Positions 6,001-50,289 of a stretch of 64,000 nt of DNA are shown piece after piece (the stretch's first letter is position 1; the number at the start of each line of letters is the position of its first letter). The notes beneath the pieces were generated by a model, which was not told the DNA's origin, did not search any database, and was given only the letters and a program-made list of their open reading frames with translations. The position numbers and the translations under genes were made by a program. Origin of the DNA: Eledone cirrhosa (Eukaryota); assembly GCA_964016885.1 (NCBI GenBank), contig OZ024740.1, positions 437,844,001 through 437,908,000 on the forward strand, given 5' to 3'.

Positions 6001-8281
6001 GACTTTCTTTTGTTACTAATATTGACTTTGTCATGTTACTAATATAGACTTTGTCATGTTACTAATATAGACTTTGTCATGTTACTAATATAGACTGTCA
6101 TGTTACTAATATAGACTTTGTCATGTTACTAATATAGACTGTGTGATGTTACTAATATAGACTTTGTCATGTTACTAATATAGACTTTGTCATGTTACTA
6201 ATATAGACTTTGTCATGTTACTAATATAGACTGTGTCATGTTACTAATATAGACTGTGTCATGTTACTAATATAGACTTTGTCATGTTACTAATATAGAC
6301 TTTGTCATGTTACTAATATAGACTTTGTCATGTTACTAATATAGACTTTGTCATGTTACTAATATAGACTTTGTCATGTTACTAATATAGACTTTGTCAT
6401 GTTACTAATATAGACTTTGTCATGTTACTAATATTGACTTTGTCACGTTACTAATATAGACTGTCATGTTACTAATATTGACTTTGTCATGTTACTAATA
6501 TAGACTTTGTCATGGTACTAATATTGACTTTGTCATGTTACTAATATAGACTTTGTCATGTTACTAATATAGACTTTGTTATGTTACTAATATAGACTTT
6601 GTTATGTTACTAATATAGACTTTGTCATGTTACTAATATAGACTGTGTCATGTTACTAATATAGACTTTGTCGTGTTACTAATATAGACTTTGTCATGCT
6701 ACTAATATAGACTGTCATGTTACTAATATAGACTTTGTCATGTTACTAATATAGACTTTGTCATGTTACTAATATAGACTTTGTCATGTTACTAATATTG
6801 ACTTTGTCATGCTACTAATATAGACTTTGTCATGTTACTAATATAGACTGTCATGTTACTAATATAGACTGTCATGTTACTAATATAGACATTGTCATGC
6901 TACTAATATAGACATTGTAATGTTACTAATATAGACTTTGTTATGCTACTAATATAGACTTTGTCATGTTACTAATATAGACTGTCATGTTACTAATATA
7001 GACTTTCTTTTGTTACTAATATTGACTTTGTCATGTTACTAATATAGACTTTGTCATGTTACTAATATAGACTTTGTCATGTTACTAATATAGACTGTCA
7101 TGTTACTAATATAGACTTTGTCATGTTACTAATATAGACTGTGTGATGTTACTAATATAGACTTTGTCATGTTACTAATATAGACTTTGTCATGTTACTA
7201 ATATAGACTTTGTCATGTTACTAATATAGACTTTGTCATGTTACTAATATAGACTGTGTCATGTTACTAATATAGACTGTGTCATGTTACTAATATAGAC
7301 CGTCATGTTACTAATATAGACTTTGTCATGTTACTAATATAGACTTTGTCATGTTACTAATATAGACTTTGTCATGTTACTAATATAGACTTTGTCATGT
7401 TACTAATATAGACTTTGTCATGTTACTAATATAGACTGTGTCATGTTACTAATATAGACTTTGTAATGTTACTAATATAGACTTTGTCATGTTACTAATA
7501 TAGGCTTTGTCATGTTACTAATATAGACTTTGTCATGTTACTAATATAGACTGTCATGTTACTAATATAGACTGTGTCATGTTACTAATATAGACTTTGT
7601 CATGTTACTAATATAGACTTTGTCATGTTACTAATATAGACTTTGTCGTGTTACTAATATAGACTTTGTCGTGTTACTAATATAGACTTTGTCATGTTAC
7701 TAATATAGACTTTGTCATGTTACTAATATAGACTTTGTCATGTTACTAATATAGACTTTGTCGTGTTACTAATATAGACTTTGTCGTGTTACTAATATAG
7801 ACTTTGTCGTGTTACTAATATAGACTTTGTCGTGTTACTAATATAGACTTTGTCATGTTACTAATATAGACTTTGTCATGTTACTAATATAGACTTTGTC
7901 ATGTTACTAATATAGACTTTGTCGTGTTACTAATATAGACTGTCATGTTACTAATATAGACTGTCATGTTACTAATATAGACTTTGTCATGTTACTAATA
8001 TAGACTTTGTCATGTTACTAATATAGACTGTGTCATGTTACTAATATAGACTGTCATGTTACTAATATAGACTTTGTCATGTTACTAATATAGACTTTGT
8101 CATGTTACTAATATAGACTTTGTCATGTTACTAATATAGACTTTGTCATGTTACTAATATAGACTTTGTCATGCTACTAATATAGACTTTGTCATGTTAC
8201 TAATATAGACTTTGTCACGTTACTAATATAGACGTTGTCATGTTACTAATATAGACGTTGTCATGCTACTAATATAGACTT
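1..8281. repeat. 23-bp tandem satellite (TAATATAGACTTTGTCATGTTAC)n with higher-order structure
   Basis: Roughly 360 head-to-tail units with point variants and 19-21 bp deletion variants. No unique spacers. The array runs off the left edge of the window. Confidence 0.98.
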
Positions 8282-8759
8282 TTTGTTGTTTTTTTTGTAT
8301 ATATTTATATATATATATGACTAACTGGAATGACTTAGATATTGGGCTGAAACTCATCTTGTGAACTCTTGTTTACACATATCGGGAATTAGGCAAGAGG
8401 TATAACAATTGTAAATAGTAAATATTTACATGTTTGACCAATTTATAGTAATGTCAGAAAAAATTTAGTTTTCTTCCTGTTGTCAAATAAATTTTGCTTA
8501 GTTTTTGTTATTTACAACGGCATTTTGAAATGTAACGTATAGCTTCTTTAATAAACAAATATTTGACATTTTTTTTACATAATAGTAAATATTTAATAAC
8601 TGAATATTATTATAATTAAATATAATATAAATTAATTTTATTTTTTATTTTTCTGAAAAATCATGGGCAATAATTATGGAAAGCATAACCTAGAGTATTT
8701 CCACAAACTGCATATACAGGACTAAGAATAATGATGTTAGTGCTGCACACAGTAGTGGG

Positions 8760-11700
8760 TTGACTAACTTAGCCATGTGTGAAAACCCATCAAGAGATTG
8801 CACAACCACTTTCCCTTTCAGATACAGAAAGCTGTTACTACTCTCAGATAAATCATTTCAATTGCATGATGATGGGCAGATCTGGAGGCTTGTTAAGGCT
8901 GGTGAAACGTGGAAGAGAGATACCAGCTGGTCTGAGTGTGATCTACCCACAATAACTGGCAATGAAAAAACTGCTACAACTCTGGGAAACTAAACCAGAA
9001 CAACCTGCCACCCTCTACACACCATCATAAACTGCGAGCAGGGTACAAATTGTTGTCCTTAAATGCTCGCAGTTTATGCAACAAGATACATATGTTTGAA
9101 TCCTATGTCAGAAGCATCGACCCTGACTTCATCAGTCACAGAAACATGGGCACATTCCTTACTCTGTGATGGGGTTTTCAGCATTACTGGGTACAACCTT
9201 TTCCACAAGGACCACATTAATCGCCGTGGTGGTGGTGGTGTGATGGTCTACGTTCGTTCAAACTTTTCGGTAATTCCTTGCGTTGATTTGAACGAATCAC
9301 AGGAAGAAGTTTTTTTCTGTGACATACGTATGACCATGTCAACACTTCTGCTTGGTGTTGTTTATCGCCCCCCCAAACTACCATCAGGACACACAGCTTT
9401 GCGATATCCTCAGAGTTGCTGCCAAGAAAACAGCCACTTATGTGTTTATTGCAGGTGACTTCAATCATCCTGAGATCGATTGGGAAACCTTTCGTTGGCC
9501 ACAAGGTGCAAACGATTTCCTTGAACTAGTGCTGGACTCAAACTGGTCACAAGTAGTCACCTCTCCAACAAGAGGTGACAACACTTTGGACCTGATCTTC
9601 ACCACTACTCCCGAAGTGGTTATCAGTTGTACTACTGAGGAACCTCTAGGCGACTCTGATCATGCTATGATCATTGCCAATCTGGCACTTGAGGGCAGCA
9701 ACAAAAACCAGAGCCATCTCTAATCTGCTTGCTTTGATTGGAAGAAAGCAGATTGGAACTTGTACTGCACTGAGCTACAGCGCCCAAACTGGCATGAGAT
9801 GTATAACTCTGGAGATGTGAACACTATACTCCAGAGCATCCTGGACTCAATATGGATAGCGTGTGCAGCATCGGTGCCACGTAAGCAGAAAAAAAACCAC
9901 CCCAAAAGTGCAATTTGGGAAACTTCAGCGGTCCGACTTCCCATGAAAAAACGTCTGAACACTGAACGGGAATATAAACTGCATAAATCAGATGCCAACA
10001 GAAAAAAGCGGAATAAATCTTCTAACCATCTCAAGCAAGTGACAAATAAGGCAGTGCTTGAATTTGAACAGTGCATAGCAACCAATCCTGACAGTAAGGT
10101 GTTCTGGAAATATGTTCATTCAAAGCAGAGACTTCACTCTCCAGTTGGTCCTCTTCGCAATCCCCACACAAGCCAGATCACTGACGATCCCAAAGAATGC
10201 GCAGAACTCATTGCTGAGTGCTATGCAAGTATTTTTACTGTTGAAAACCAGAATGTACCATCTCCACCATCTCTAACATCAAATTCCATAACAACTATGG
10301 AATTTACACCTGCAATGTTGCGACATCACCTTAAGAATAAGTGCAACTATGCCTCCCCTGGTCTTGATGGTGTTACATACCTACTTCTCAAACGTGGCGG
10401 GTATTTCCTTTTGTGCCAGCTTTCTTTCTTCTTTCAATACTGTCTCAACAATGGTGCTACTCCGGAGCAGTGGAAAACTGCCAGTGTCATTCCCCTGTTC
10501 AAAAAGGGCAACCGCATGTCACCTGTCAACTATCGTCCAGTCAGTCTTACTAGCTGTATGGCCAAACTGATGGAATCCTGTGTCAGAGAAACACTTTGGA
10601 ACTTCTGGAGCTCTCACAGCCTCATCCGGCCCTCACATTTTGGATTTATCCCTAACTCCAGCTGCTGTGATCAGCTTATTGAGTTCCTTGAAGACATCAC
10701 CCAGATCACTGACAGCGGCTCATGGGTGGATGTTGTTTACCTTGACTTTGCTAAGGCTTTTAATTCTGTGCCACACAAAAGACTTATGGCAAAACTCTCT
10801 GCAATGGGTGTGAGGGATGATCTTTTCGACTGGTTGAAATCCTTCATTCTCAGCCGAAAAGAACTAGTCACGGTTCTAGGACAGCATTCTTCACCATATG
10901 AGATGTCATCTGGTGAACCACAGGGATCTGTTCTTGGTCCCCTTTTGTTTGTGGCATATATTAATGACATAGATGCCAACTTACAGAATGCCACGGTACT
11001 GAAATATGCAGATGACATCAAGCTGTACCTTGAAATCAAAAGGACTGATCCTGAAATCTACAACTCTTTCCTACAATCAGACCTGGATACAATGCAGCAA
11101 TGGATCACAGACTGGCAACTGAAGCTGGCTGTGGACAAGTGTACCACCATGCATTTTGGGAGGAAAAATCCAGCGTCCACATACTCCCTCCACAACACTG
11201 ATATCAAGAAGTCCTCTTGTGAACGTGACCTTGGCATTACTGTCAGCAGCGATTTGCGTTGGACAAAGCATGTCTCTAAGATTGCAAAAGAAGGCCGAGG
11301 GTGTCTTGGCATCATTCAGCAAGACCTTTGTTAGCCGCTCTCCAGTCATCTATTTAAAACTGTATACAGCTATGGTATGACCACACTTGGAATTCGCATC
11401 ATCAGTCTGGAATCCCTATCTTGCTCAGAACATAGACCTCCTGGAAACTGTTCAGAGACGTGCAACCAAGCACATACCCTCCATCAGACACCTACCATAC
11501 TCTGAACGCCTTGCTTCCCTGGGCATGGATTCATTGAAGCTCCGACGTCTGGCAATGGACTTGGTAAATACCCACAAAGTTATTAACCATCTCGCCAATT
11601 GCAACCCTGAGCACCTTTTTGATCTCCATGTGTCTAACACACGTGGACATGCCTACAAAATCAGAAAACAGCACAGCTCCCATGACTTTCGTAGACATTT

Positions 11701-12097
11701 TTTCACGCTCAGAGTTGCTGAAGCATGGAACAAACTGCCTGCGTCAGTTGTTAGCTGCCGAGACACTGCATCCTTTAAGACACTCATGCTTCCCGAAATA
11801 CGCCAAAACTACACCTGATGTACCCCTTCCATACACATGCACACATGTGTGTATCATGACTCGTGCACTGTTCATTTTACTGATGTTTGTGCATTGCCCT
11901 ATGTACTGTACATGCACTTTTTGATGAGTTGTGGTGCACCTGGGCACTGTACACAATATTTCATTATTATTATATCATGACTCATACACTGTTCATTTTC
12001 CTGACATTTGTACATTATTCTATGTACTATATATGCACCTTTGATGAGTTGTAGTGCACCTGAGCACTGTACACAATAATTTCATTATTATTATTAT
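8760..12097 (+). mobile_element. CR1/L2-group LINE, degenerate (ORF1 tail, APE endonuclease, RT)
   Basis: APE motifs GVVYRPP, AGDFNHP, LDLIFT, LGDSDH (9063-9723). RT motifs NYRPVSLTS, VYLDFAKAF, QGSVLGPLLF, KYADD (9760-11334). C-terminus VQRRATK...RVAEAWNKLP and an (ATT)n tail. Frameshifts and stops present. Confidence 0.92.
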
Positions 12098-12099
12098 AA

Positions 12100-12205
12100 T
12101 TCTACCACATTTAATGTTGGAACAATGAAAGGTAGATCTGAGAAAATTGTAAAGATGCTTGAGAGGAGATGAGTAGATGTGTGCTGTGTTGAAAAGGTGA
12201 GGTGA
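12100..12205 (+). mobile_element. RTE LINE endonuclease N-terminal fragment
   Basis: Translates TFNVGTMKGRSEKIVKMLERR*VDVCCV, a typical RTE APE start. Confidence 0.6.
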
Positions 12206-13075
12206 TGATGATGATGAGTGAAACTGACATTACAAATATTTAATGTCTCCTACAGAGATTCATATTTTTATGGGAGATACAGTTTCTTCAGTACACCATA
12301 ACAGCCAATCATATGCAACATTCCTAAAATATTTGGCGCCTTTACTCAGCAATAACAAGGTGATCTGAGACATGAAGAGTTAAGTGCACTACCTGCAGTA
12401 AATATCTTGTCCACTGAGCCAGTTCAACTGTATAAGACAATAACTAAGAAAAAAGTATTCATTCTTATATTGTGTTGAGTAGTTAATGGTTAACTGAGCA
12501 CCCAGCTCCAAAAATCAGGCTAGCATGCAAAAATTGATGTACAGCAGCATATTGTTCATGGCTGATGCAGTGGGTGTCACTGGCTATTTTCTGCAGCAAT
12601 GTTTTCACTATCTTCTCTGCATGGTGCATCTGAGATACACTGACTAGACAAGGCTGTTGAGCCTGTCACTCCCCTCTTTCCCTTATATAATTTAATTGAA
12701 ATTTGTTGAATAAAGAATTGTTGTGAATATCTAAAAACATCTATAAATACTTCAATGAAGTCTTTAGAAGATCATGGATTAATTGACAGGAGAAAGCAAG
12801 GTCTGAAGATCAACACCCAATGCTTATTGTTATATTTTTATATCAATAAAGTGATTTAGTTTGACCAGATTGTCGATAACTAGCATCTAGTTTGATCCCT
12901 TATTTTGTAGTAGAGTTATATAAAGATACAGAAAAAGAGAGAAGCGTTGGAAAGGACTATAAATGCCATAAATGAGACGAAAAGGTGGGGAGGAACAAGG
13001 ACTTCTAGACAAAGGAAGAAAGAAAGGTGTAAGCGGAGAAGGTGACAGACTCTACACCTAGGTCAGAGTGGTGTT

Positions 13076-13385
13076 TCAGCTGTGCCCCATGGACAAAATG
13101 ACAAAGGCATTTCCGCAGACAATGGCCAGTGACACAAGCTGATATAGCCACCCTACATCGTGGGGCTCCTTCCTCAGATGGGCTGCTATCAGTCCAATTT
13201 TATGGAGGAAGTCAGCTGTCCGGGGTCCGAGGACACATGAAGTCTCAACAGTGACCCGTGAAAAGAGGAAGTAGCCGGACAAGCTCCGGTATTTGCTTGT
13301 CTTCCTGTCCTCTACATTGTGAGCCATGGAGGTGGAGAATATAACACAGCATGTTGCATCCCAGATGAGAAATTTACCTCCTTCA
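13076..13385 (-). mobile_element. CRE-like non-LTR retrotransposon 3' fragment (restriction-like endonuclease)
   Basis: GKFLIWDATC, then VETSCVLGP and VSLAIVCGNA. Homologous to the element at 29990-30925. Confidence 0.7.
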
Positions 13386-13464
13386 AAATTTACCCATTTC
13401 TAAATTCCAAACCCACTTGTTCAGATTTCGCATTTTTACCCCATTAGAATAGATGAAATAAGCA

Positions 13465-13653
13465 ATAATTGTTTCTACTTTAGGCACAAGGCCCGCAATT
13501 ACCCAGTGCATTACTGGTACTTTATTTTATCGACCCCGTAAGGATGAAAGGCAAAGTCAACCTCGGCGGGATTTGAACTCAGATCGTAAAGGGACGTAAC
13601 TATGCTGGAAAGCATGGCGTCCGACCCTCTACCAATACTGCCAATCCACCGCC
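13465..13653 (-). mobile_element. Full-length tRNA-derived SINE with Nin/Deu-like core
   Basis: A box TGGCAGTATTGG, B box GAGTTCAAATCC, core GCCTTTCATCCTTACGGGGTCGATAAAAT. Candidate TSD AAATAAGCAATAAT at 13456 and 13659. Many other copies in the window. Confidence 0.85.
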
Positions 13654-14268
13654 CTATTAAATAAGCAATAATAATAATAGTATAGGTATTGAAGTAGCTG
13701 TACATAAAATATTTACTGAAGAAATAGCAAGAGCCATTGAGCAATAAAAAAGATGAAAAGGCTCCTGGATTAGATGGAATTGCAAGAGAGACAAAAAATA
13801 AAGAAATAATAGCAAGAACGTTATTAAAACTGTTTAATAATATATAATGAATTATCAGGCTGAAGTGGAATCTACATAGGGTTGATAGGACCTGTGTGAC
13901 AATGACATAAACTCTCTTGTGCTGATGTCATCCTAAAATATACCCTGTACTCTATGTAAAGTAGTCAGTGTTAGTAAGAGCACCCTGTCATAGAAACCAT
14001 CTTAAAATAGATTATACGCTTGAGATGTGTTCCTTTGACTCCTGTGGGAGGGCAGTTACTCCAGATAAGAAGTAACTCAGGCCATAACGAGCCATTTAAC
14101 AAGTACCAATATGGAAAGTAGATGTAAAATACAACAAAACAGACGACAATGACACCAACAATTGTGCTAGGTAAACAAAAGATTATAAAAACATATGTAG
14201 GGTGGTGCCCCAGCATGGCCTCAGTCGAATTGCTGGAACAGGTAAAAGAATAAAAGAGTATAACTTAC

Positions 14269-14324
14269 AAAACTTATAGGCATATTCTGCATCAATTCTT
14301 TTGGCTGCACAGAGGATGTAAATT
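14269..14324 (-). CDS. IRF: Probable IRF coding exon 3 (linker, EFTSSVQPKELMQNMPISF)
   Basis: Long polypyrimidine acceptor (tttttttgtatttcaatttctgttag) and perfect GTAAGT donor. Its phase-1 start matches the preceding exon and the frame is open. No homology support. Confidence 0.6.
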
Positions 14325-14642
14325 CTAACAGAAATTGAAATACAAAAAAAGGAAAACAAGTAAATAAAAGCTAATAAATTTTCAACTAGACAGCTTTTCA
14401 TCATCTGATTATCCTTCAATGCGCTGTCATCAATACGGAGTGCCATAAGAGTTTTTTCCCCTTAATAGATAATGCAGTGTCAAGGGAAATAACTCATAAA
14501 ATTACTAGCGCACTAAAGGTTAAAGCTGTCCTAAGTAGACTATAATAAAACTTTATGGTTAATATAGGGGCATGCTTTGAAAACTAAGGTAGCAACCAAC
14601 TGTGTTTAGCAGACTATAATCTATGTATATATATATATATAT

Positions 14643-16504
14643 AATGAAGGAGTTGTGGTAAGGAACCAGATGGACCATAACGCACCAGAGTACTCAATAC
14701 TTAGGGTAGTAGAGTGGGTAATAGGAAAAAGTATGACCCCGACGGCAGAGCTCAAGCCGTTTCGACGACTATTTCTGGACTAAATTAGAATTTTTAGTCT
14801 GGTAAATAAATAGCCGAACTTTTTAAGGGGTACTTCCTTATATGGGAAGATTGTAGTTGTCAAGAGGATTGGTCAAAATTTGTTGTAAACACAAATAAGT
14901 CTATCATGGCAGTGGCTGGGGAGTGGGGGTGGCTGAACTTGCCTGCAGAACAATGAGGGAGTGGGTGGAGCCGGTCAAGCGGTGAAAGTGAAATCTATAT
15001 GGCAAATTCTAAGGATTGTGTATGAAAGTAGGCCAGAGGAGGTAGGCGAAAAAAGGTTTCTGGAGAAAATAGAGGAGGGACGTTATAGAATGGGTAAATC
15101 AATTGAGATTAGGAGACAATAAAAAAATAAGAGAAAGATATACAAAAATAAAAAATTGGATAGTGAGAAGTGATAAAAAACAAAAACTATAGAGTCTAAA
15201 ACAGCTGCTATATTTAGTTGGTGTTGCTTTTTCGGCCAATGCTAGAGAATGAGTTGAGAATAGAAGATACTAAATAAGAATTATTGAAATTGTAGAATTG
15301 GATAGTAAAAAGTAATACAAAATCTCTGGGGTCTAACACAGCTGCTATGATTAGTTAGTATAGAGTATTCGTCCAATGCTATCTTTAAGTTACTGGGGTG
15401 GGGGTACTGAGGCTACAGAGGCCTGATGAGCTGCCTCGGGGTAGCCGAAAGGAAAAAAAAAAACGAACGAGGAAGATCGGTGGTGGAAGGAGGTGATAGG
15501 AGGAGACAAAGGGAAGAGGAAAACATAGAGGAAAAGAAAAGAGGTACATCTACCTATGTAAGCTGGAGTTTCCCCTATCTTATTCGGCAAGTGGGGTGTT
15601 TCAGCCCTTGTCTACACACCCAGATCGTTAGGGGGTTTGAGGGCGAGGTAAGTCTTACGCAATCTGTGTTTGCATGCAGTTACCAGTTCGTCTTTTTTGT
15701 TTAGGAGTTGATCCTTTGTAAACAGCATTTGTAATGTTTCCTCCGAGCATAAGTTACACGGACGGCATCCTCCCATGTAAGAGTTAGCTCTGGACAGTAA
15801 CGTGATCTACCAGTGCAACGTGAGGACGGACACTTCCAACAAAGCTTATATAGGATTAACCGCTTGTGTCTTAAGACCCGGCTCTACCAACACCAACATA
15901 CGTTCCGAAACCCAGTCCGGCAACATGCCACTACACTTTTGGGCTACATCTGGGACCTCCAAGATAACAATATAACCCACAATCTCACTTGGAGCTTACT
16001 GTCCAGAGCTAACTCTTACACAGGAGGACGCCGCAGCTGTTTTAGACTCTATAGTTTTTGTTTTTATCACTTCTCACTATCCAATTTTTTATTTTTGTAT
16101 ATCTTTCTCTTATTTTTTTATTGTCTCCTAATCTCAATTAATTTACCCATTCTATAACGTCCCTCCTCTATTTTCTCCAGAAACCTTTTTTCGCCTACAT
16201 CCTCTGGCCTACTTTCATACACAATCCTTAGAATTTGCCATATAGATTTCACTTTCAACGCTTGACGGCTCCACCCACTCCCTCATTGTTCTACAGTTAA
16301 GTTCAGCCACCCCCACCTCCCAGCCACTGCCATGATAGACTTATTTGTGTTTACAACAAATTTTGACCAATCCAACTTCCCATATAAGGAAGTACCCCTT
16401 GAAAAGTTCGGCTATTTATTTACCAGACTAAAAATTCTAATTTAGTCCAGAAATAGCCGTCGAAACGGCTTGAGCTCTGCCATCGGGGTCATACTTTTTC
16501 CTAT
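14643..16504. mobile_element. Two head-to-head 3' fragments of a Penelope-like element forming an inverted repeat
   Basis: Plus arm from about 15799 encodes GIY-YIG (NVIYQC...AYIGLT, LKTRLYQH). Minus arm encodes CNLCSEE...LLNKKDELVTACKH. 14721-15208 is the reverse complement of 16033-16504. Flanked by (TA)n. Confidence 0.85.
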
Positions 16505-16536
16505 ATATATATATATATATATACAAATATATATCG

Positions 16537-16725
16537 TAGGTACTCTTCAGTCATAAATGACCAAGGTTTTTCATCTAGACAGTTCCCCGCCCCCTCTCCA
16601 TGCCACCAATGTTATCCAAGGGAAAGGCAATGGCCAAGCTTGGCACCAGTGACATTGCAAACCATTTCTAGAGCTGAGTAAACTAGAGCAACATGAAATA
16701 AACAGTCTTGCTCAAGTTACACACT
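16537..16725 (-). mobile_element. SINE fragment (Meta-like core)
   Basis: Minus strand CTTGAGCAAGACTGTTTATTTCATGTTGCTCTAGTTTACTCAGCT resembles the core of the SINE at 17825-18082. Confidence 0.5.
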
Positions 16726-16911
16726 TATAAGGAATATTCAGTCACATACCCTATAATTCAGTTGCTCAAACAATTAAGCACTCATCATCAAAACTAACAT
16801 TAAACTATTCATATCTTTTTGACATTTACATATGTGTATATGCTTGTGCATTTTTCTATGTGTATGTGTGTGTGTTTTTAAATGTATGTGTATGTGTGTA
16901 TATGCAGATGT

Positions 16912-17070
16912 GATGAATTGAATTGGCAGTTGTTAGAACGTCAGATAGAATGCTTTGCACTGTTCATTCTGGTTCTCTGCTCTCTGATATCAAATCCTGC
17001 TGAGGTCAACTTTGCCTTTTATCCTTTGACGGTCAATAAAACAAAGTACCAGTCTAGTACTGGGGTTGAT
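16912..17070 (+). mobile_element. Diverged Nin/Deu-core SINE
   Basis: caaatcctgctgaggtcaactttgccttttatcc...aaagtaccagt matches the 13465-13653 family. Confidence 0.7.
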
Positions 17071-17284
17071 TTTTCCTTTATATCTCTTTCTAACATCCTC
17101 TCTCTCTCTCTCTTTTCTCTAGAAGAAATCACATATGTTCAGACCCAATGCATGATTGGCTAGGCTCCGTGAGGCTTAAAATGCCCAGTTTCACTACAAT
17201 ATCACTACAACTCCATCAGGAGTTTTTGGTTCTTACATACATACATATTTCTCTTTAATTTATATCATAGATAGTATAAAATAC

Positions 17285-17450
17285 CTTTTATTTGGAAGAA
17301 TCGATATGGATCATCCTTTTTAGAGTAAGTATACATTTCTTTCATTTCAATTATATTTGCCTGTTTATTCATTGCATTTCGAAACAAAGTCTTCCAATAA
17401 GGGTACTCTGGTTTATCTTCTTTATATCGATGTGTATGAATTGCCCATTC
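17285..17450 (-). CDS. IRF: IRF coding exon 2 (second half of DNA-binding domain)
   Basis: ttttttaaacag|EWAIHTHRYKEDKPEYPYWKTLFRNAMNKQANIIEMKEMYTYSKKDDPYRFFQIK|gtattt. Contains IRF tryptophans 4 and 5, the recognition helix and the PYR motif. Phase 0 matches the upstream exon. Not in the ORF track. Confidence 0.93.
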
Positions 17451-17824
17451 CTGTTTAAAAAATTAGAGTGTTTCATTCTGAAATAAATAATGTTAAAATA
17501 ACAGCCACCCTAACTTTTCCCAACCTTGGTTGAATAGCAAAAACACTGCAGTGCAAGACAAAATTCTTTACAGTATTTCAGTTTTTTACTTTTCTGAGAT
17601 CATTTCTAGTTTTGATGCAAAACTTTAAATTAATTATAATTTAAGTTACTGCCTCCCATCATAATTTTGTTAAATTATTTTCGAAGCACCAACATAACAA
17701 GGAAATATTGTGCTAAATCTCTGTACATAATCAGTGTATTTCATTAGAAATATGGTGATTAATATTAACTCTTAACGTCCTGTACCACATGAAACCACAT
17801 TAGCAAGACATTCTTGAAAAATAC

Positions 17825-18082
17825 AAAACAGCACTACGACCAAAGACCGGAGACTCATCAGGCCAGAGTTTATCCTGGTTTCCATGGCATAAAGCAATTG
17901 AGAGAACAAGACCCTCCCCTGGACAGGACGCCAGTCCATCACCGGGTCAAAGCTGGTGCTCATTTTCAGCAATGTGAATGAAATATTTTGCTCAAGAACA
18001 CAATACACAATCCAGTCTAAGAATCGAACCCATGACATAATGATCGTAAGTCAAATACCCTTACCACTAATCTATGTGTCCC
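17825..18082 (-). mobile_element. tRNA-derived SINE with Meta/V-like core
   Basis: Head TAGTGGTAAG...GGTTCGATTC, then TGTGTTCTTGAGCAAA and GATGGACTGGCGTCCTGTCCAGGGG. Confidence 0.75.
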
Positions 18083-18380
18083 ATCTCACCTGCAGTATGA
18101 CTGCATCACATTCAAATTGAATGTCTTTAGTTTACTGCTAATTTTCAAAACAATCTGCCCATTAGTAAAGATAATATAAACATTAGAATTAACAGACGTG
18201 TTAATGTATTTTTTGCTAAATGAATACAGGATGATAAAAGATCAGTATTTTATATTCTTAGTAAAAATTTTGCTGAGATGGAATTATTATTTTTTGTTTT
18301 GATGCTTTGATCTGGCAGGGGGGGCTGGTCCCAGAGAAATTGAAAACCCAGTTAAATATATATATACACACACATATACA

Positions 18381-18416
<36 letters not shown>

Positions 18417-18490
18417 TACGTGAAACAATTGTTCTCGGTATGGTGAACTAACTGTTGTGTAACCACTTCTATATATATATATATATATAT

Positions 18491-19179
18491 ATTGGTAAAC
18501 GGAATAGAAAATGCTGACAAATTGTTCACAGTTGAAAAATGGTTTAATTAGGAATAAAAGAGTATTAGTGATTGTATGGGTTAGTATTCAGTTGTGGTTT
18601 TAAGTTTTTAAGTTTTTACCGGTTGCGCATTTCTAAATGCTTTTCAAAAATAATTTTGAGATAGAGTGTCCGTGTTGTTTGCTCTGATCTGATTAGTTTT
18701 GGGAATTCTACCTGTTTTTATGTTAAAAAAGTGGCTCCAGCGTTACTTTGGTTTTGCAAACACCAAATAGCGCTGGAGCCACTTTTTTAACATAAAAACA
18801 GTCTTGGCGCAAAATCAATTTTTTACATTCACATGACCTCTACCGACCAATCAAAATTGTTTTGACCACAAGAATTTTTGCAACACCAAAGTAACGCTGG
18901 AGCCACTTTTTTAACATAAAAACAGGTAGAATTCCCAAAACTAATCAGATCAGAGCAAACAACACGGACACTCTATCTCAAAATTATTTTTGAAAAGCAT
19001 TTAGAAATGCGCAACCGGTAAAAACTTAAAAACTTAAAACCACAACTGAATACTAACCCATACAATCACTAATACTCTTTTATTCCTAATTAAACCATTT
19101 TTCAACTGTGAACAATTTGTCAGCATTTTCTATTCCGTTTACAATATATAATAACTTGTGTGTTACACCTCTATTCTTT

Positions 19180-19183
<4 letters not shown>
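18491..19183. mobile_element. Inverted pair of Penelope pseudo-LTR ends (about 270-bp arms)
   Basis: 18491-18760 is the near-perfect reverse complement of 18876-19147. The same sequence follows the GIY-YIG ORF at 59990-60375. (TA)n on both sides. Confidence 0.85.
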
Positions 19184-19221
<38 letters not shown>

Positions 19222-19336
19222 CATGCTTTTTGTGAGTGTACAAAATACTGTGAGTTTTCATAAGATATATTGTTCTTTCTCTCTCTATGTACATATATCT
19301 TTAAATTTAAATTTTATATATATATACACATATCTA

Positions 19337-19860
19337 TCATCATCATCATTTTATGTCTGCTTTTCCTTGCTAGCAAGGGTGGGACGGGTCCTATTCAGCA
19401 CATCTCTCCATTCGTCACAGTCTTTCGTCATCTCCTCTGTGAGCTTCAGCAATCTGGGGTCAGCTCTCACCACCTCCACCCATGTTTTTCTACTGCGTCT
19501 TCCTTCCACTGGGATTTCTTGGCACCTCTTCACCCAGCAGTCGTCTTTCCTGCGCATCACATGGCCATCCCAACATAGTCTTCTCTCCCACACATTACAG
19601 TTTATTCTTCTTATACAGTTTGACTCTCAACTCACCTATGCTTGGTCGTTCACGCACATTGACATTGCACATCCATCCGAGTATGCTTGCTTTATTTCTC
19701 TCCAGCTGTCGCATATCCTCCACAGTTGCTGCCCATGTCTCACTACCATGTAACATTGTGCATCTCACACAGGTATCATATAACCAACCTTTTGTTCATA
19801 GTAGGAAACCCTTTGTTGTCAACAGAGATGCAGCTCCTTAAACTTCCATCCTGTCCCTAT
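19337..19860 (-). mobile_element. RTE LINE 3' fragment
   Basis: RRLCWDGHVMRRKDDCWVKRC...GRRSRKTW and an (ATG)n tail. Confidence 0.8.
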
Positions 19861-20801
19861 TTGAACAGATTAAATGTTTTAGGACAGAATCTGTTTTCAC
19901 CTTATTTAGGGCTCTTCAGAGATTCTGAAGATCCCTGGACCTGTGCTTAAATATTTAATCTATTCAGATAACAAATATAAACTTACATATATTTAACATA
20001 ATTAAATTCTATTGGGGTAGCCTGTACATATTGGTAAATAGCGAAAGGCGAGAATGGAGAGAGATGAGCTAACCTATCAGGAAGTTGTAGCAGACATCAG
20101 CAAAATATAAGGTTGTAGATTCAAATGTTACATTTATTTGAAATTTTAATTAATTAAGTTAAATTCAAGTTCGTCAAAAACCACAGATAGACCCCTTTTG
20201 AAGATTCCATCCTCGTCTTCAGTGTGGTGCTGTTACTGGTTCATATATAAAATATTGAAATAAGTCCAAGAAGGAACAGAACAGTTGTTTTGTTTTTATT
20301 CTTCCAAGAGTAAATAAAATCGTATTTGTATTTGGAAGTGATTTAGAGAGGAGTCTTAAAAATATTGGATAATGGCGTCCTATATACACTATGTCAAAAT
20401 AGAAGAATGGATGGTCACAGCTGGAATGCTTTTGATTATAGATCTGCTAAATAACTTTCTCCTTTTCTATATATATAGAGAGAAAAACAGTGAGTTCTTC
20501 TAAATATATACACTATCTTTCCTCTTTTTTTCTTCTTTATTTATTTTTGGGGTCTTTTTCTTCTCATCTTCATCTTTCTTCTTTTCATTATCTCCCTCAC
20601 AATTATTCTCTAGAGACTAAGGTGGTAATTTCAAATTTACAGTAAACTAAAGACAGACTTCATTTTTAATGTGATGCAGTCATAATGTTTTTAAGAGTGT
20701 TTTGTTAATGTGGTTTCATATGGTACAGGATGTTGAAAGTGAAATGCTTAGATTGACAAAAATATAAAATATACAAATTCTTCATTTAATATATCAGACC
20801 A

Positions 20802-21197
20802 ATCATCATCATCCTCACTGTTTAACATCCATTTTTAAACACATGGGTTAGATGGATTGCCATGTTGTAAGAGGTCAGGTGACCATATCTAGCTCATACA
20901 GAACTGATTTTGGCTTGGTTTCTACAGCTGGATGCCCTTCCTAATGCCAACCATATTTACAGTGAGTTCTGGGTGATTTTTGTTGTGACACCTACATGAC
21001 CACTTTTACAGGGTGGACTGTGTGCTTTTTGTCGTGACACCTACATGTCCACTCTACAGGGTGGACTGGGTGCTTTTTGTCATGACATCTACATGAACAC
21101 TTTACATTGTGGACTGGGTGTTTATTGTCATGTCACCTACACGACCACTTTATAGTGAGTACTGGGTGCTTTTTGTTGTGACACCTACATGACCACA
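20802..21197 (-). mobile_element. RTE-associated 3' module with internal ~45-bp tandem repeats
   Basis: GTTGGCATTAGGAAGGGCATCCAGC and an (ATG)n tail, as in the 3' ends at 29055-29834 and 49555-50289. About 5 copies of gtgacacctacatgaccacttt...ggactg. Confidence 0.65.
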
Positions 21198-21228
21198 TAA
21201 AAAAATCTTTCAAAATAATATCAATTAC

Positions 21229-21393
21229 CTTGAATATCTGAAAATCCAATTCATTGCCTTGATTAGTTGTGTTCCGTTTCCAAAGAATCTGAAAAGTTCC
21301 CTCTCTTTTATCAGTCCATCTGAGACCTGAAACATTTCCACGGTCAAGTTTCTTCACAAGCCAAGGCAGTAATTTTTCTCTTGAATTTGACAT
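21229..21393 (-). CDS. IRF: IRF coding exon 1 (first half of DNA-binding domain); exon begins at 21413
   Basis: MSNSREKLLPWLVKKLDRGNVSGLRWTDKREGTFQILWKRNTTNQGNELDFQIFK. W11/W26/W38 spacing is identical to IRF1/2. Acceptor ttttgcag ends at 21414 and donor AAG|gtaatt follows FK, an intron position also seen in vertebrate IRF4/8. Confidence 0.93.
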
Positions 21394-21516
21394 TTTTGTT
21401 CTATTGTGGTTCACTGCAAAAATAAATAAATAATGATTCTTAATAATTTCCAGTAGGTTAATTTATCTCACATTTCAAAACATTTCAATCACTAATTTTA
21501 CAAATACAAAAGTGTG

Positions 21517-21824
21517 AAATCTAAGCCAGTGTACATTATAATATGTAGGTAGGTGTCCCACAAATCTAAGTCAGTGTACTTATAATATGTAGGTAGGTGT
21601 CCCACAAATCTAAGTCAGTGTACTTATAATATGTAGGTAGGTGTCCCACAAATCTAAGTCAGTGTACTTATAATATGTAGGTAGGTGTCCCACAAATCTA
21701 AGTCAGTGTACTTATATGTAGGTAGGTGTCCCACAAATCTAAGCCAGTGTACATTATAATATGTAGGTAGGTGTCCCACAAATCTAAGTCAGTGTACTTA
21801 TAATATGTAGGTAGGTATCCCACA
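21517..21824. repeat. 44-bp minisatellite, about 7 copies
   Basis: AAATCTAAGTCAGTGTACTTATAATATGTAGGTAGGTGTCCCAC repeated in tandem. Confidence 0.95.
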
Positions 21825-22869
21825 AAAAAAGTAATATTCTATTTCAAAAACAATGAAAGGTAAAATGAAACTCAGCAAGATTTCAGTTCAGAATGCAACT
21901 AATCCTAAGAAATACTGAGGCATATAATCCGACACTCATACAACACCAGTAGCTGTATAACAGATTAATATATTATTTGATTATCCAATTAACTACTAAA
22001 TGATAAAATTGTTTGCAATAATAGTTGCTACATATAAAAAGGTTTGTTTAATTTTGTATACATTTGATTAAAAAAAATGAAACAAAAAATGAAAAAATAA
22101 ACCAAACAAAAACAAAAGCAAAAAGTACTTGAACACAAATACCTAGTTATTGAAATTAGTGAAACAATAAAAAGATATCTGGTAGATATGATACGTGACT
22201 GGAGAGTTATCAATAGTATTGTATGTTAGATAACCAGCTGAGTAGATTGTAGAACCAGGCAGAGTGTTAAAGAAATAATGAGAGATATGTATAGTTCCTA
22301 GGACACTAATATATCTGTTGATGCAACACATCTGGGGAAACTTTCTACATGATACAGTTAGTGGTTAGTGATAGGAAGGGCATCGAGTCATAGAAAACTT
22401 AGGACTGTTCAGCTGTGTCAAAAACATGACAACTTCTGTAGCGCTGGTGCCATGTTAAAATACATCAGGCAGCACATGGGGTCCTATGTAAGTGGGCTGA
22501 GGACCAGGAGATTGTCAGAGCAGGAAAGTGGGTAGTTTGCAGCAGTAAGATCCTTTCATATGAAGATGGAGAAGTAGGAGAAAGAGGTAGAGAGGACAAA
22601 AAGAAGAGACATGATCACTGCCACCACCACCACCATTTGATGTTCATTTTTCTTCAATGAGGAGGTCTGATAAGAAGGAAACATGTTGGCTACTTTCACA
22701 AGTTGGCTTTCAAGACAACACCCACTTCCATTTTTATCATCTTTATTTCCTAAGTATTTTGATTAGCTAATTTGATTTGAGTTACCCTCTTTGTTTTCGT
22801 TTTTTATATTTTAAACATACCTATAGGGAGTTTTTGTCTATTAATTGCATGGCTATAATTTCTGTTAAT

Positions 22870-24115
22870 CAAAGTTTTTCAACTCACTATATTACAAGTG
22901 AGCATACTGCCATGATTGAGGCTCCTTCTGATGAAGTCAGAGTGGTGTGATGGGGGGAGCTGGCATGACAGGGGGAGCCAGGGCTGACAAGAGAAATTTT
23001 GCAAGGCGGTACAAGACCCCTTAGGGTCCCAAAGCAGGCAAAAATTTTTTCTCAAAATGAATATTTCATGGCTGCTGTGGGGCCTTCTTAACTCTTGGGC
23101 TTTGGAACAAAGTACCGACTGGACCCCCCCCCCCTCATAGGCCCTGGGGGGGAGCTGGCCTGCACTAAGGCGGCAAGATAATGAATGCAGATTGAACTCG
23201 TCAACCAGTGCTCTACAACAGCATCTGTGTGGCTCACACATGCAGAGTTGAGGTGCTGTGCCACTCCAATGTGGGTGCACTCCCCATGAAGAAGGGTACC
23301 AATTGATGAGAATGGCACCAAACTGAGCCAAGCGTGACTGTTTGGTTGTGAAGCAGGGTGTAGGCAGGCAAGATAGTGTTGGTTTGAGAAAGACTCCTGT
23401 AGGTGTACTTGCACTTGACTTCATTCCAGTTACATTGGATATCGGTATACTGGAAACTGGAAAGGTCTTCAGTGATCGGATCAGCCAGAGCTGACTCCAG
23501 TTCCTGAGCCATGTCAGGTTCTGTTATCTTGCAGAGAATCTTGTTAAGTTTGTGGCTGGAGGAGATTGAGGAGAGATAACCTGGCAGAGCCGACCATGTA
23601 TCTGTGGCTGAGGCTGTAGAAACTCTCAGGGAGTTTTGCCTGTTGCCAGCCATTGTAGATAAGTTCCACACAGTATTGGATGACGGCAACGAGTTCAATG
23701 AGTTGATCTAGTAGCAAGGTGACCGCGAAGTGTGAAGTGAAATTTGGGGAGGTGCCAGGAGGAAGAGTGCCAGGTGCATGGCAAGGCACTATCTCTCCAT
23801 CATACCCGTGATGTCTGCATGCTTGGTCTTCAGAGACCCATGCATGTCTTTCAGGAGGATTGGAGAGCTTTGGGGTCAGCAGAACCCCAGTATGGCATCT
23901 TAGAATTCGACTCCGCCTTAGCTCACATTGACGACCTCAGATTTGGCCGGGTTGATCTCCAGTCTAAGTACAGGGATGACTTGCTGGAAGTCCTCACCAA
24001 CAGACTCAGCCTCCCACAGTTCCGTCGCACAAGTACCAAATACTGAAGAGCTAACAGACTGAGTGGATGATGTCATCAACAATCAGCACAAAAAGGAAAA
24101 GGCCGAATGAGCCTT
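22870..24115 (-). mobile_element. CRE-like non-LTR RT remnant
   Basis: Minus strand FGLFLFVLIVDDII...IWYLCDGTVGG resembles the CRE WYLDD region, followed by degenerate downstream domains. Confidence 0.6.
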
Positions 24116-24859
24116 TCAATTATTTTATAATAAAAATTCTACATAGATTAACGTTGTCAATGTATATACATACATTAATCTAGTAAAATGTATATTATAC
24201 ACACATTAATCTAGTAAAATGTATATTATACACACTTTAAGGTAAGACTTGGCAGTATTTTTCGATAATAATTGTTTTTCTTTTTTCATATAAATTGCAT
24301 GCATACTTATGCGGGATAAAAAAGTACTTAATGGCATTTAATATACATAATATTGTGTTTTGTAATTACTGGCGGTGTGATTTAATTTGCGATTCAGTAA
24401 AATACGCAATACTCTTCCATTTTCCGTCATAAATTTGCTTTTATTTTTAATGTACTGATAATGAAAGAATACTTATTAACAGACCATTGACAAGAAAGTC
24501 GAAATTAAGTGACCAACAAGTGGGTAACAACCTACAAATGTATATATTTAAGACGATACAATATGCAAAATGTGACAAAACTAAAAGAAAAAAAATGTAA
24601 GTAGGCCATTAAAAAAATTTATACTGAATAAAGAAAATATTGAATAAAAAATAAAACGAACGTTATACATCAGCAAATTCAACTGACAACAATGTGGAAA
24701 ATTATTTTTGTAGACATACTTAAGTTTTACAAGTTAAGTGAAACGTTAATTTGGAAGTATATGTTTGCTACTGTTGGCGAATAACTGAATATAAAATGCA
24801 TAAATGTATTAATAAATTCACGTCTTCAACATTAAAATATACCTCGCCATCACCTGAGG

Positions 24860-25125
24860 CAACTCTGCCAATGTGATGGCTTGCATCAAAAATCATTAGA
24901 GAGGTTCCCCAGTACTCGCGACGCTGCTGTCTTTTACTCCGTTGTTCACCCCTTCCTTTACATTTTCTTTAATATTGTAGCATTGAAGGAATATATCTTT
25001 CATTGTATTATCCTTTGTAGTGTTACAGGCATTTGTAATGTTATTTATGTATATATTTAAAACATATTTGTTATGTTATTCTACTGTAAATTTATTTATA
25101 TGCTCTGTTTATATTTTCATTCTGA
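24860..25125 (+). mobile_element. CRE-like element 3' end
   Basis: Reverse-complement match to 29990-30280 (aaaatcattagagaggtt...gttcaccccttcctttacatt...). Confidence 0.7.
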
Positions 25126-26119
25126 AGGAACTTATCCACTTGTGTTGATATAAGTGATTTTATGACTTTCCTGTAAGCATTGTATCATTATATATGTTAT
25201 TAAAAACAAATTACATGCAAAAAAAAAAAATATATATACGATAGTTCTCTGTCATACGATAAGAGTCGGTCAGAAAAAAGTATTAATCACCAGATATGTT
25301 AACAATGAAGGGCAGATCTGGCTGTATGAGAGGAAAGGACTATAGAAACTATGAGAACAATCGCTATCTAAAATAATCATTTCCTGCAATAAAAATAGAA
25401 TGTATATAACTATATCATTTAACTTTATAGCACATTTCCAAGTATTTAGTTTCACAAACACCGACACATATGAAGCGGGGGGGGGGGGGGGGGGTCTTCG
25501 AACTATCTAGAAAATGAGGTCAACTATTAATGCTAGCAATTCCCTGGGGAAGTTGATTATATTGAGTCTAGTTCTCTCGGGTCTCGAATAATGGCACACC
25601 CATCTACCCCCGCCAACTTATTAATTTTTTAGATCCCCCACCTCCTCCTTATTAATTTTTGTTACGCTACCTCTGGCTAAATTTTATTTTAATTGATAGC
25701 ATTCCTGCAACAATTAATTTTCTTTAGACATTAAAAAAAGTACATTACAAGAAATCCCACATGTTATAAAATAAATAGGATGGTTCGGCCTCACCAATCG
25801 TGAACCAGGTGAGGCTTCGAGAGCACCCGGGAAGGACACCTGTCTCCTCATAATATTAACAACAAAGGGTTTACAAAAAGAAAATATATTAAGGACAACA
25901 GAGGGCGGAACAATACGGGTTTCTTCGTGTAAAAAGACAAGAAACGATAACAAAAAACTAAAATTAAAAACAACACGGTTTAAACATTGTTATTTACTCA
26001 TTTGTAATGTTATTTATGTATATTTTCGTAGATAGTATAGAAAAATGTAATGTTGATAAACACGAATATAAATACTTTATGGAATTCGCAAATAGGGGGA
26101 GGGGTGTCACCGAAATAAT

Positions 26120-26252
26120 AATTGTTTCTACTTTTGGCACAAGGCCAGCAATCAGCCAGTACATTACTGGTACTTTATTTTATCGACCCCGTAAGGATGA
26201 AAGGCAAAGTTAACCTCGGCGGGATTTGAACTCAGAACGTAAAGGGACGTAA
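26120..26252 (-). mobile_element. Nin/Deu-core SINE, 5' truncated
   Basis: Matches 13465-13600. Confidence 0.8.
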
Positions 26253-26756
26253 TATTGTCTTTATTAGCAACACAGGGCTCACATTAAGGAGACATTAAAG
26301 ACGGTACATGACGATACAGTGTGGAGGGTTTTTTGTATAAAATAAAATTTATAAGAGATAAAGAAGATAAACATAAAAATATATTCGTTGTTAATAAGTT
26401 ATAATGCAAAATTTAGAAAAATTGCCCCTCTCCCATCCACTACCCTCACCCCAATCAGTTCTACATGGTCACTCATCTTGCTAGAAATAGCAGCCATAAC
26501 ATCCTTAAATCACTCATCTATCACCTTAAAAAATAAAATAAAATAAAAAGTAGGACCCGTTAGATAATGTGATGTTGGAAACATGTATAAATAAAAGACA
26601 GGATAGTCACAAATGGAGCGGATTTGATCATAGGTTTGTGTGTGCATGGAACTATATATTTATGTATGTGCGTTTATATGTAAGTTTGTTGTGTATATGT
26701 ATATGTGTATATATATATATATAGAGAGAGAGAGATCAAGTTGAATATAGAAATGG

Positions 26757-26803
26757 CTTCTACAGGACTAGAACTGTTTCATTCAAAAGAAATCATCAGG
26801 AAA
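26757..26803 (-). ncRNA. Type I hammerhead ribozyme motif (probable solo PLE terminus)
   Basis: TTTC CTGATGA T TTC-TTTT-GAA T GAAA CAG-TTCTAGTC-CTG TA GAAG. Canonical core boxes, three stems and a GUA cleavage triplet. Stem II is weak. Confidence 0.65.
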
Positions 26804-26951
26804 GTTGTGTTGTGTACGTTATTAACTGTGGTTACTCCCGATTGAACCCGGGACTCACACACACACACACACACTTATGTAAAGGGCTGGTCTACAGTAA
26901 ATCAACAAAAATAATACTATTAGAAAAACATTTTTGAAAAAAAAAACTTAC

Positions 26952-27060
26952 GTAATGGAAAGTTTTGTTTTGAAGTACTAATGAGATTTCTAAATTAATT
27001 CAAATATGTTTCGATAATATATCTAGAGTGTACATAGATTCGCCTATGATAGAAACATAC
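26952..27060 (-). other. Candidate non-coding first exon of the IRF gene
   Basis: Begins about 30 nt downstream of TATAAAA and ends at CATTAC|GTAAGT. The ATG-containing exon has an acceptor, so an upstream exon is required. Confidence 0.5.
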
Positions 27061-27082
27061 TACGAAGATCCGGGTTGTTACG

Positions 27083-27164
27083 TTTTATAAATACCTGTTA
27101 GTTTCAGTTTCAACTAATTTCCCCGAATTGTGGGGAAAATCTTTTTCTTTTGAAATGATGTAAT
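27083..27164 (-). promoter_or_regulatory. Candidate IRF promoter: TATA, ISRE, GAS, kB-like and C/EBP-ATF-like sites
   Basis: TATAAAA on the minus strand (27083-27089), AGTTTCAGTTTC (27100-27111), TTCCCCGAA (27119-27127), GGGGAAAATC (27132-27141), TGATGTAAT (27156-27164). Confidence 0.6.
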
Positions 27165-27611
27165 CATACTATGTAGAGCGCCTATGGTTGTATACGCCTA
27201 CGTTTGTGTATATCTAAATATGTCATGTATGCTAACTCATATATATATGTACGAGTATATATAAATATGTCATGTAAGCTAACTCATATATACATACATA
27301 CGGTTGTTTTTGTTCATACGTAACACGTAATCTATATATATAAAATTTGTCTGAGTGTGTGTCCTCATTTTTGCAAAGTCTATACAAATCCACATTTCTA
27401 CTCGGATTGACTTCAAACTTGTATTTATATATTCCTTGCGGGCTAAAGATATTAACTGCAGCTTTTATTTTTCAATGTTCTGTTGTTAAAGGGGTGTAAG
27501 GCGCCGGTTATCGATCTCCGTCGAGCCCTTATAATATCTGTCTGTATGTCTGACTGTCTGCATTAAACATACTGACGAACACGTCATTGCTGACGTATTA
27601 TCTTCGCTACA

Positions 27612-27876
<265 letters not shown>

Positions 27877-28074
27877 TTATTAAAATAACAGATTAAAGTT
27901 TAAGCAATGAATCGCTGCTTTAACCCTTAACAGGATCTTCTGAAACTAAAAAAATCAATCTGTGAACGCAGAAGTAAATATTTCGAAAAACGTTGCAACC
28001 AAAGGAAGACAGGAAAACGATACTTTGGTTTGTGGAGACATTCTTTGGCAATGAACGGAAAAAAAGCGAACATA

Positions 28075-49554: not shown

Positions 49555-50289
49555 ACACTGGAGAGAAACGAAGCTTGCATGCTCTGCTGGATGTGTAATA
49601 GTAATATACGTGAACGGCAAAGCATAAACGAACTAAGGGAGAAATTAGGAATAAGAGGGATCAGATGTTGTTTACTCGAGAGAAGACTACGTTGGTACGG
49701 TCACGTGATGCGCATGAAAGACGACAGTTCTATAAAAAAGTGCAGGGCGATAAAAAGAGACGGTAGCCACGGAGTAGGCAGACCCAGAAAAACCTGGGAC
49801 GACTTGATAAATTCCGACCTCACACACTTACACCTCTCCAAGACAATGTCATTGGACCGAGATCTTTGGCGCTACACAGTTATACAGAAGACCCGCCTTG
49901 CCTAAGTACAAAGAGAAACCTACAGTCAGTAGGCACCTCTAACAAAATACACCCCCGTCCCACTACCCTATCCCCTCACCCCATCAACACCACCGCTTTC
50001 TCTGTAAAGTTATGTTGGTACCACAACATCCAGTCCTAAATAAATGAGGTCGTGTAGGTGTCACGACAAAAAAACACACAGTCCACACTCTAATGTGGCC
50101 GTGTAGGTAACACGGTAAAAACCTCCCAGTCCACACTGTAAACGTGGTTGGTGTTAGGAAGGGCATCCAGCCGTAGAGAACTCGCCAGACAGTCCTATAC
50201 GAGCAAGACAACCAATCTTGCCTCAAGTGGGAAAATTCCCGTCCAAACCCATGCTAGCCTGGAAAATGGACGTTAAACGATGATGATGA
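49555..50289 (+). mobile_element. RTE LINE 3' fragment
   Basis: Near-identical to 29055-29834, with an (ATG)n tail. Confidence 0.85.

Follow-up and report, generated by a model that had tools for sequence, protein, structure and literature searches.

Interferon regulatory factors (IRFs) are reported from nearly all animal groups, with an early split into IRF1 and IRF4 supergroups (PMC2885996, PMC7819612), and their known range across animals includes molluscs (PMC2885996, PMC9334734, PMC13524488). Seven IRFs are reported in Aplysia (PMC9334734), and molluscs are described as being without true interferon (PMC7819612). The studied example of a mollusc IRF8 is oyster CgIRF-8; oyster IRF8 is described as induced and nuclear after poly(I:C), in a cGAS- and STING-dependent manner (PMC8218723), and as linked to haemocyte proliferation (PMC13524488). 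In the relevant passages of two octopus studies, IRF2 or IRF3/7 are named by annotation only (PMC10778463, PMC4199593), and we found no paper in the open-access literature on the octopod IRF lineage considered here or on its regulation. We examined a 64,000-nucleotide stretch of the Eledone cirrhosa genome (contig OZ024740.1; the window), in which a preliminary description had recognised an IRF gene on the minus strand. With a probability of about 0.8, this is an octopod IRF4-supergroup (IRF8-like) gene whose spliced 5' half lies in the window and which would encode a transcription factor of about 370 residues regulating innate-immune or haemocyte genes. By sequence comparison the gene is another cephalopod member of an ordinary animal family of immune regulators, and its nearest relatives are already annotated in octopuses. 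The present work contributes one more cephalopod IRF, a longer gene model for it and a corrected subgroup, the IRF4 supergroup.

Exon structure and transcript evidence

The exons of the 5' half were placed on the minus strand as follows:

26952 to 27309, minus strand: 5' non-coding exon, identical to letters 1-358 of a 1994-nt contig of sequencing run X4 (0 mismatches), with donor GTAAG after 26952
21229 to 21413, minus strand: first coding exon, 20 nt of untranslated region (UTR) and codons 1-55 with tryptophans W11, W26 and W38; contig letters 359-544; followed by a phase-0 intron
17285 to 17450, minus strand: second coding exon, codons 56-110 with the recognition helix, W57 and W74; contig letters 545-709; followed by a phase-1 intron
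14269 to 14324, minus strand: likely third coding exon, a 19-codon linker running from phase 1 to phase 0, placed by splice signals and likeness to the Octopus linker

The exons 21413-21229 (55 codons, phase 0), 17450-17285 (166 nt, phase 1) and 14324-14269 (56 nt, phase 0) are each flanked by AG and GT and share a single frame with no stop. The start codon is an ATG at 21393, and the spliced UTR has an in-frame stop 48 nt upstream of it. Nine upstream ATGs, opening frames of 2-17 codons, were noted in the UTR of the non-coding exon.

The second coding exon was found to be present in four sequencing runs, all from one study and none on record as RNA. In run X4, which comprises 88 million letters of contigs, the 1994-nt contig was placed on 8700-27400 as 27309-26952, 21413-21228 and 17449-17285 with 0 mismatches, the one-base offset at the join being a G that fits both sides. 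The introns removed at its two joins are 5.5 and 3.8 kb long, both of GT-AG type, and the run contains 0.63 of the words from a stretch that is 66% exon. From these exon joins and the share of exon words we infer that X4 is RNA and, by the same step, that the gene is expressed. Run X1 holds a contig that continues unspliced through exon and intron (17062-17761). The spliced contig shows the junction 21229/17450, one of the two that the preliminary description had proposed. The gene starts 5.5 kb further upstream than in that first model, at the non-coding exon 27309-26952; the three exons stand as they had been placed, but this 5' exon had been missed and the 3' half of the gene was not found in the window.

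The exon 14324-14269, which had been said to continue the frame, has a strong acceptor and a GTAAGT donor. When all 374 AG-started open candidates from 17234 to 8283 were compared with the Octopus linker, it ranked at the top with a score of 20, against a mean of -16.9 (standard deviation 8.9) and a runner-up at 9.7. By homology and splice signals it is likely the third coding exon. In the 5' half nothing points to a pseudogene, whether stops, frameshifts, loss of splice sites or want of a spliced product.

DNA-binding domain, subgroup and orthology

The two exon peptides were scanned separately against the Pfam IRF profile (PF00605; curated cut-off 27), and both exceeded it. The first half matched profile positions 2-49 (E 6.7e-12, 46.1 bits) and the second half positions 50-104 of 105 (E 4.9e-9, 36.9 bits), the two being contiguous with no gap (49 to 50). 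The tryptophans W11, W26, W38, W57 and W74 fall at alignment positions where 67-68 of 68 IRF domains have W, and the halves match 17 and 20 distinct PDB sequences, respectively, of solved IRF domains (IRF1, 2, 3, 4 and 7). Judged from these likenesses, the IRF identity of both exons is far beyond chance, and the earlier view that two phase-compatible exons form a complete 110-aa five-tryptophan IRF domain is borne out by both profile matches, all five tryptophans, the spliced contig and the intact frame.

Relatives were sought by profile among 1.84 billion representatives and through two word-index searches. The nearest were proteins of 371-382 aa from Octopus sinensis, O. bimaculoides and O. 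vulgaris, with 64-65% identity over the domain (68/106 for the first two and 69/106 for O. vulgaris), while Argonauta matched at 52/105. The Octopus sequences XP_029643519.1 (O. sinensis), XP_014786721.1 (O. bimaculoides; "interferon regulatory factor 1") and CAI9715085.1 ("interferon regulatory factor 5"; O. vulgaris) begin in the same register as the window gene, have a similar 19-residue linker and have Leu37, Arg40, Leu77 and Asn80 in common with it. The Argonauta hians protein GAB1600669.1 (IRF1-like, 362 aa, IRF plus IRF-3) shares Arg40, Leu77 and Asn80, and is 50% identical to the window on a long branch. Pfam IRF and IRF-3 (IAD1) domains are both present in the proteins of O. sinensis, O. 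bimaculoides and Argonauta. With the first-exon peptide, the profile search gave 149 matches, many of them repeat proteins aligned over stretches of 20-25 residues, and 67 proteins matched the spliced peptide. The word-index search with the second-exon peptide, a weak test at 55 residues, gave no match.

We then assessed the subgroup of the gene with a maximum-likelihood tree of 27 domains, picked from the 68 aligned with near-duplicates omitted (107 columns). The window, the three Octopus proteins and Argonauta formed one clade (100/98), joined next by two library proteins (97/89) and then by mollusc IRF8-like rows with IAD1 (93/88). Forcing the octopod clade together with seven IRF1-type rows was rejected (approximately unbiased test; p-AU 0.027). 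Liolophura sinensis XP_064611278.1 and Tegillarca granosa KAJ8303588.1, both IRF8-like with an IRF4-supergroup domain, belong to this mollusc sister group (93/88), and it is on such rows, not on oyster CgIRF-8, that the likeness to mollusc IRF8 rests. They are 44-45% identical to the window and retain His40 and Cys83, unlike the window; in the genomic open reading frames (ORFs) of mollusc IRF8-like proteins an intron follows the F-K codon pair at position 55, as it does here. In addition, for 26 of the 67 library proteins that match the spliced peptide, the match breaks off precisely at residue 55 and a Val follows, the pattern expected of a genomic ORF that reads into a GT donor. The 26 are IRF3-like and IRF8-like in sequence, and the intron position is shared with genes of those two kinds.

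IRF1 and IRF2 have two introns inside the domain. The window gene does not follow this pattern, having one in-domain intron; its first coding introns are in phases 0-1-0, the first of them mid-domain and the third phase depending on the unconfirmed third exon. Phases 0-1-0 are tabulated for human IRF3, 4, 8 and 9, and 0-1-1 for IRF1/2 (PMC2885996, Table 1). The vertebrate IRF3/IRF7 and IRF4/IRF8/IRF9 genes have the five-tryptophan winged helix-turn-helix, phases 0-1-0 and the conserved Arg and Asn in helix 3 in common with the window, but differ in carrying His40 and Cys/Ser83 where the window has Arg and Asn, and there is no one-to-one orthology. By tree, intron position and phases, the gene is best placed in the IRF4 supergroup and not with IRF1, which makes the "IRF1" names of its relatives misleading; the phylogeny proposed in the preliminary description, against IRF1-group and IRF4-group proteins, came out on the IRF4 side. 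Membership of the IRF1/IRF2 group would follow the database names "interferon regulatory factor 1", and the region around W57 does resemble IRF1-type domains. However, the names appear automatic, since the O. vulgaris protein of the same cluster is called IRF5, and the relatives carry IAD1, described as absent from IRF1/2 (PMC6543449). Helix 3 is also without the K-A-N-F-R-C-A pattern of IRF1-type rows, and both the phases and the p-AU of 0.027 oppose this assignment. We consider it largely refuted and scarcely credible.

Within the IRF4 supergroup, the simplest account of the window gene is orthology with the Octopus gene named "IRF1" or "IRF5", in an octopod that belongs to another genus or is at any rate remote from these three species. 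It is far more divergent from the Octopus proteins than these are from one another, and its domain identity to them of just 64-65%, against 87-95% among the three Octopus domains, would suit a functional separate paralogue that arose by an old duplication of the IRF4-supergroup gene of octopods and is missing from the annotated Octopus proteomes. The free tree also suits a paralogue, setting the window outside Octopus plus Argonauta (87/94, not starred). Yet the family evolves fast: Argonauta and Octopus are 56-57% identical in the domain and about 50% over the full length, a pace at which 64% is compatible with an orthologue from a different family of octopods. The arrangement uniting the window with Octopus in a single clade was not rejected (p-AU 0.176), and searches with library protein P0025 and with the domain of P0163, a protein confirmed to carry IRF plus IRF-3, led in both cases to the same three clusters, without a further octopod lineage. 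A paralogue is possible but rather doubtful, and we retain orthology as the simpler account.

The residues that read DNA were examined against the same 68 rows. The recognition helix (helix 3) keeps Arg79 and Asn83, equivalent to IRF1 Arg82 and Asn86, and IRF1 position 87 is Lys in the window, as in 37 of the 68 rows. At IRF1 position 83 the window has Asn in place of Cys (window Asn80), a state found in 5/68 rows, namely the window and four octopod proteins only. His40, a DNA-contact position, is replaced by Arg in 9/68 rows, the window and the octopod proteins included. The conserved Gly of the TGRY motif (Gly62) is His in the window alone among the 68, which also sets it apart from the Octopus proteins. 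In vertebrate IRF3 a Ser stands at the Cys83 position and binding to the interferon-stimulated response element (ISRE) is retained; by this analogy, Asn at the same position may be harmless. Arg82, Cys83, Asn86 and Ser87 in helix 3 of IRF1 are described as reading GAAA (PMC6543449, PMC7819612) and His40 as making the IRF minor-groove contact (PMC3116919), and human IRF4 C99R, at the same cysteine position, is reported to alter motif preference (PMC10630337). The exchanges His40 to Arg and Cys83 to Asn might together shift the preferred DNA motif, which is a weaker part of the working model.

Several other library proteins were noted. Three 365-aa IRFs with IAD1 (P0106, P0155 and P0156) are sister to the octopod clade (97/89), sharing the His40 to Arg exchange and keeping the cysteine. 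Another five (P0003, P0152, P0153, P0075 and P0115) combine 2-6 tandem IRF domains with CARD domains; P0003, P0152 and P0153 are "uncharacterized" proteins of Acipenser ruthenus, and P0003 and P0115 also carry FIIND/UPA, with PYRIN in P0115, giving an NLRP1/CARD8-like architecture with IRF domains. Two Owenia fusiformis proteins (P0026 and P0158) have two IRF domains and no IAD1, and a Pelodytes model (P0023) has two full IRF3 units, possibly from two fused gene models. P0004 and P0005, from among the repeat proteins matched by the first exon, have no IRF domain.

C-terminal half, working model and first-exon motifs

Octopus and Argonauta relatives suggest that the window gene would carry a C-terminal IAD1, the domain that mediates partner binding. 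No IAD1 exon was found in the window by tblastn with 13 relatives or with a profile of four octopod C-terminal halves run against 3304 six-frame stretches (best E 6.1); tblastn and profile search also detected no second IRF copy there. Contig letters 710-1994 (1285 nt) were not placed in 8700-27400 among the listed pieces, of which there were 8 per run, the shortest of 132 nt. These 1285 nt exceed the approximately 780 nt needed by a frame of Octopus length, leaving a 3' UTR. The unplaced letters, taken with the absence of an IAD1 exon from the window, indicate that the 3' (IAD1) exons likely lie to its left, beyond the 8.3-kb satellite at that end.

The alternative is a truncated IRF with the DNA-binding domain only, or a transcribed pseudogene, in which the IAD1 exons were lost, for example at the satellite, leaving a competitor or an inactive product. 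The absence of an IAD1 exon from the 14 kb downstream within the window, the succession of a long interspersed nuclear element (LINE) and a satellite next downstream and the singular His at the TGRY Gly would all agree with such a loss. Against it stand the frame free of stops and frameshifts, the canonical splice sites, a linker exon that still resembles the Octopus linker and the 1285 further nt of contig that, among pieces of at least 132 nt, were not placed in 8700-27400 and point to exons outside. We judge truncation to be quite improbable.

A complete IRF4-supergroup gene is accordingly the reading that we carry forward, and several points weigh against it besides the position of the window in the free tree. 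No IAD1 exon was found in the window, so that the C-terminal half is predicted from relatives; the junction 17285/14324, the second of the two proposed, has homology and splice signals in place of RNA support; and the RNA status of X4 is deduced for one run of one study. Furthermore, the tree of 107 columns holds no vertebrate IRF4/8/9 row and one fish IRF1-type row only, and the group behind the p-AU of 0.027 was named after the tree had been inspected.

A motif containing serine closes the IAD1 of the relatives and aligns with the IRF3/IRF7 tail, at a position that we take to be the TBK1 site of IRF3. This tail makes activation as in oyster IRF8 and vertebrate IRF3 likely; a pLxIS motif is described for STING (10.1101/2022.12.18.520954). 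By analogy with these proteins, the product of the window gene would most likely dimerise in response to a signal and then activate innate-immune and haemocyte genes. Pathogen sensing would lead to phosphorylation of the IRF by a TBK1/IKK-type kinase, dimerisation via the predicted IAD1 and nuclear entry of the dimer, whereupon helix 3 (Arg79 and Asn83) would bind GAAA-type repeats.

Two putative regulatory motifs were noted in the 5' non-coding exon:

27119 to 27127, no strand assigned: putative gamma-activated site (GAS)-type STAT site, TTC-N3-GAA; described consensus TTCN(2-4)GAA (PMC7819612, PMC6543449)
27100 to 27111, minus strand: putative ISRE core, GAAA-NN-GAAACT, 7 nt from the GAS

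The ISRE core 12-mer occurs 2 times in the window against 0.14 expected, and this copy is without the purine that the full ISRE consensus has two bases upstream (a one-base miss). The GAS by itself shows no enrichment, with 14 occurrences against 13.96 expected. The 10-mer IRF element (IRF-E) is found 11 times against 2.19 expected, with a GAS within 40 nt in 1 of the 11. The window has no pair of this kind other than the one at 27100-27127. Dinucleotide shuffling of the exon (20,000 rounds) produced a pair no more than 40 nt apart 0 times with the 12-mer, 4 times with the 10-mer and 14 times with the 10-mer and a looser GAS; the window-wide enrichment of the IRF-E 10-mer means that such shuffles understate its background. 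The case for the pair is weakened further in that the motifs were picked post hoc and the sites lie inside a transcribed exon. A GAS is described in the mammalian IRF1 promoter (PMC7819612), which is a precedent for GAS wiring.

The STAT-like and IRF-like motifs of the first exon may switch the gene on during infection, and the working model would then add, as a weaker element, induction of the gene itself via the GAS and ISRE core. If so, the first-exon GAS-ISRE composite would wire the gene like a vertebrate interferon-stimulated gene. Should the domain have changed its specificity, a different IRF, and not the gene's own product, would recognise the ISRE. The boldest combination of these elements, a fast-evolving octopod IRF whose rewired DNA-reading surface prefers a non-canonical motif, joined to a GAS-ISRE-driven STAT-IRF feed-forward antiviral circuit operating without interferon, seems to us unlikely. 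Should the octopod substitutions change DNA specificity, or the GAS-ISRE pair function, the locus would offer a handle on interferon-like signalling in cephalopods. The same region has a second, looser GAS at 27145, a G-rich 10-mer near 27132-27141 that is presumably kappaB-like, and a CpG observed/expected ratio of 1.2-1.6 over 27001-28000.

Repeats and other features of the window

Two large repeat features lie downstream of the third exon:

1 to 8282, no strand assigned: array of a 23-bp satellite with about 364 copies (94% matches) that continues past the window edge
9063 to 11818, plus strand: broken LINE with endonuclease and reverse transcriptase fragments (Pfam Exo_endo_phos and RVT_1), antisense to the gene

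The broken LINE likely lies inside the next intron of the IRF gene, and the satellite likely lies in an intron of it as well, if the 3' exons are beyond. The gene had been described as hidden among retroelements, a description that reflects nothing unusual: kilobase introns packed with repeats are normal for such a repeat-rich genome, these introns are ordinary large ones, and relatives are annotated in three Octopus species and Argonauta hians.

Pfam was scanned with 78 of the 95 ORFs of at least 100 aa, those omitted being the IRF ORF and 16 ORFs in AT microsatellites. Matches above the cut-off were to reverse transcriptase (RVT_1), endonuclease, zf-RVT, GIY-YIG and a PHD finger in a LINE-like fragment, all of them of retrotransposon type. 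The claim that this is the only host gene in the window thus stands at Pfam sensitivity for the 78 scanned ORFs, while genes with short exons could escape such a scan. The PHD-like finger (Pfam PHD E 8.3e-7) follows the C-terminal part of a broken LINE-type reverse transcriptase in the same minus-strand ORF at 48412-49222. A GIY-YIG domain was detected in a plus-strand ORF at 59355-59990, and we take the sequences at 58533-59990, on both strands, to be Penelope-like fragments. The nearest relatives of the IRF gene make an octopod source of the window likely, and its short repeats presumably resemble octopus short interspersed nuclear elements. Minisatellites of 48 bp and 44 bp, at 20969-21196 and 21517-21826, flank the first coding exon, and the 48-bp unit recurs at 50043-50141.

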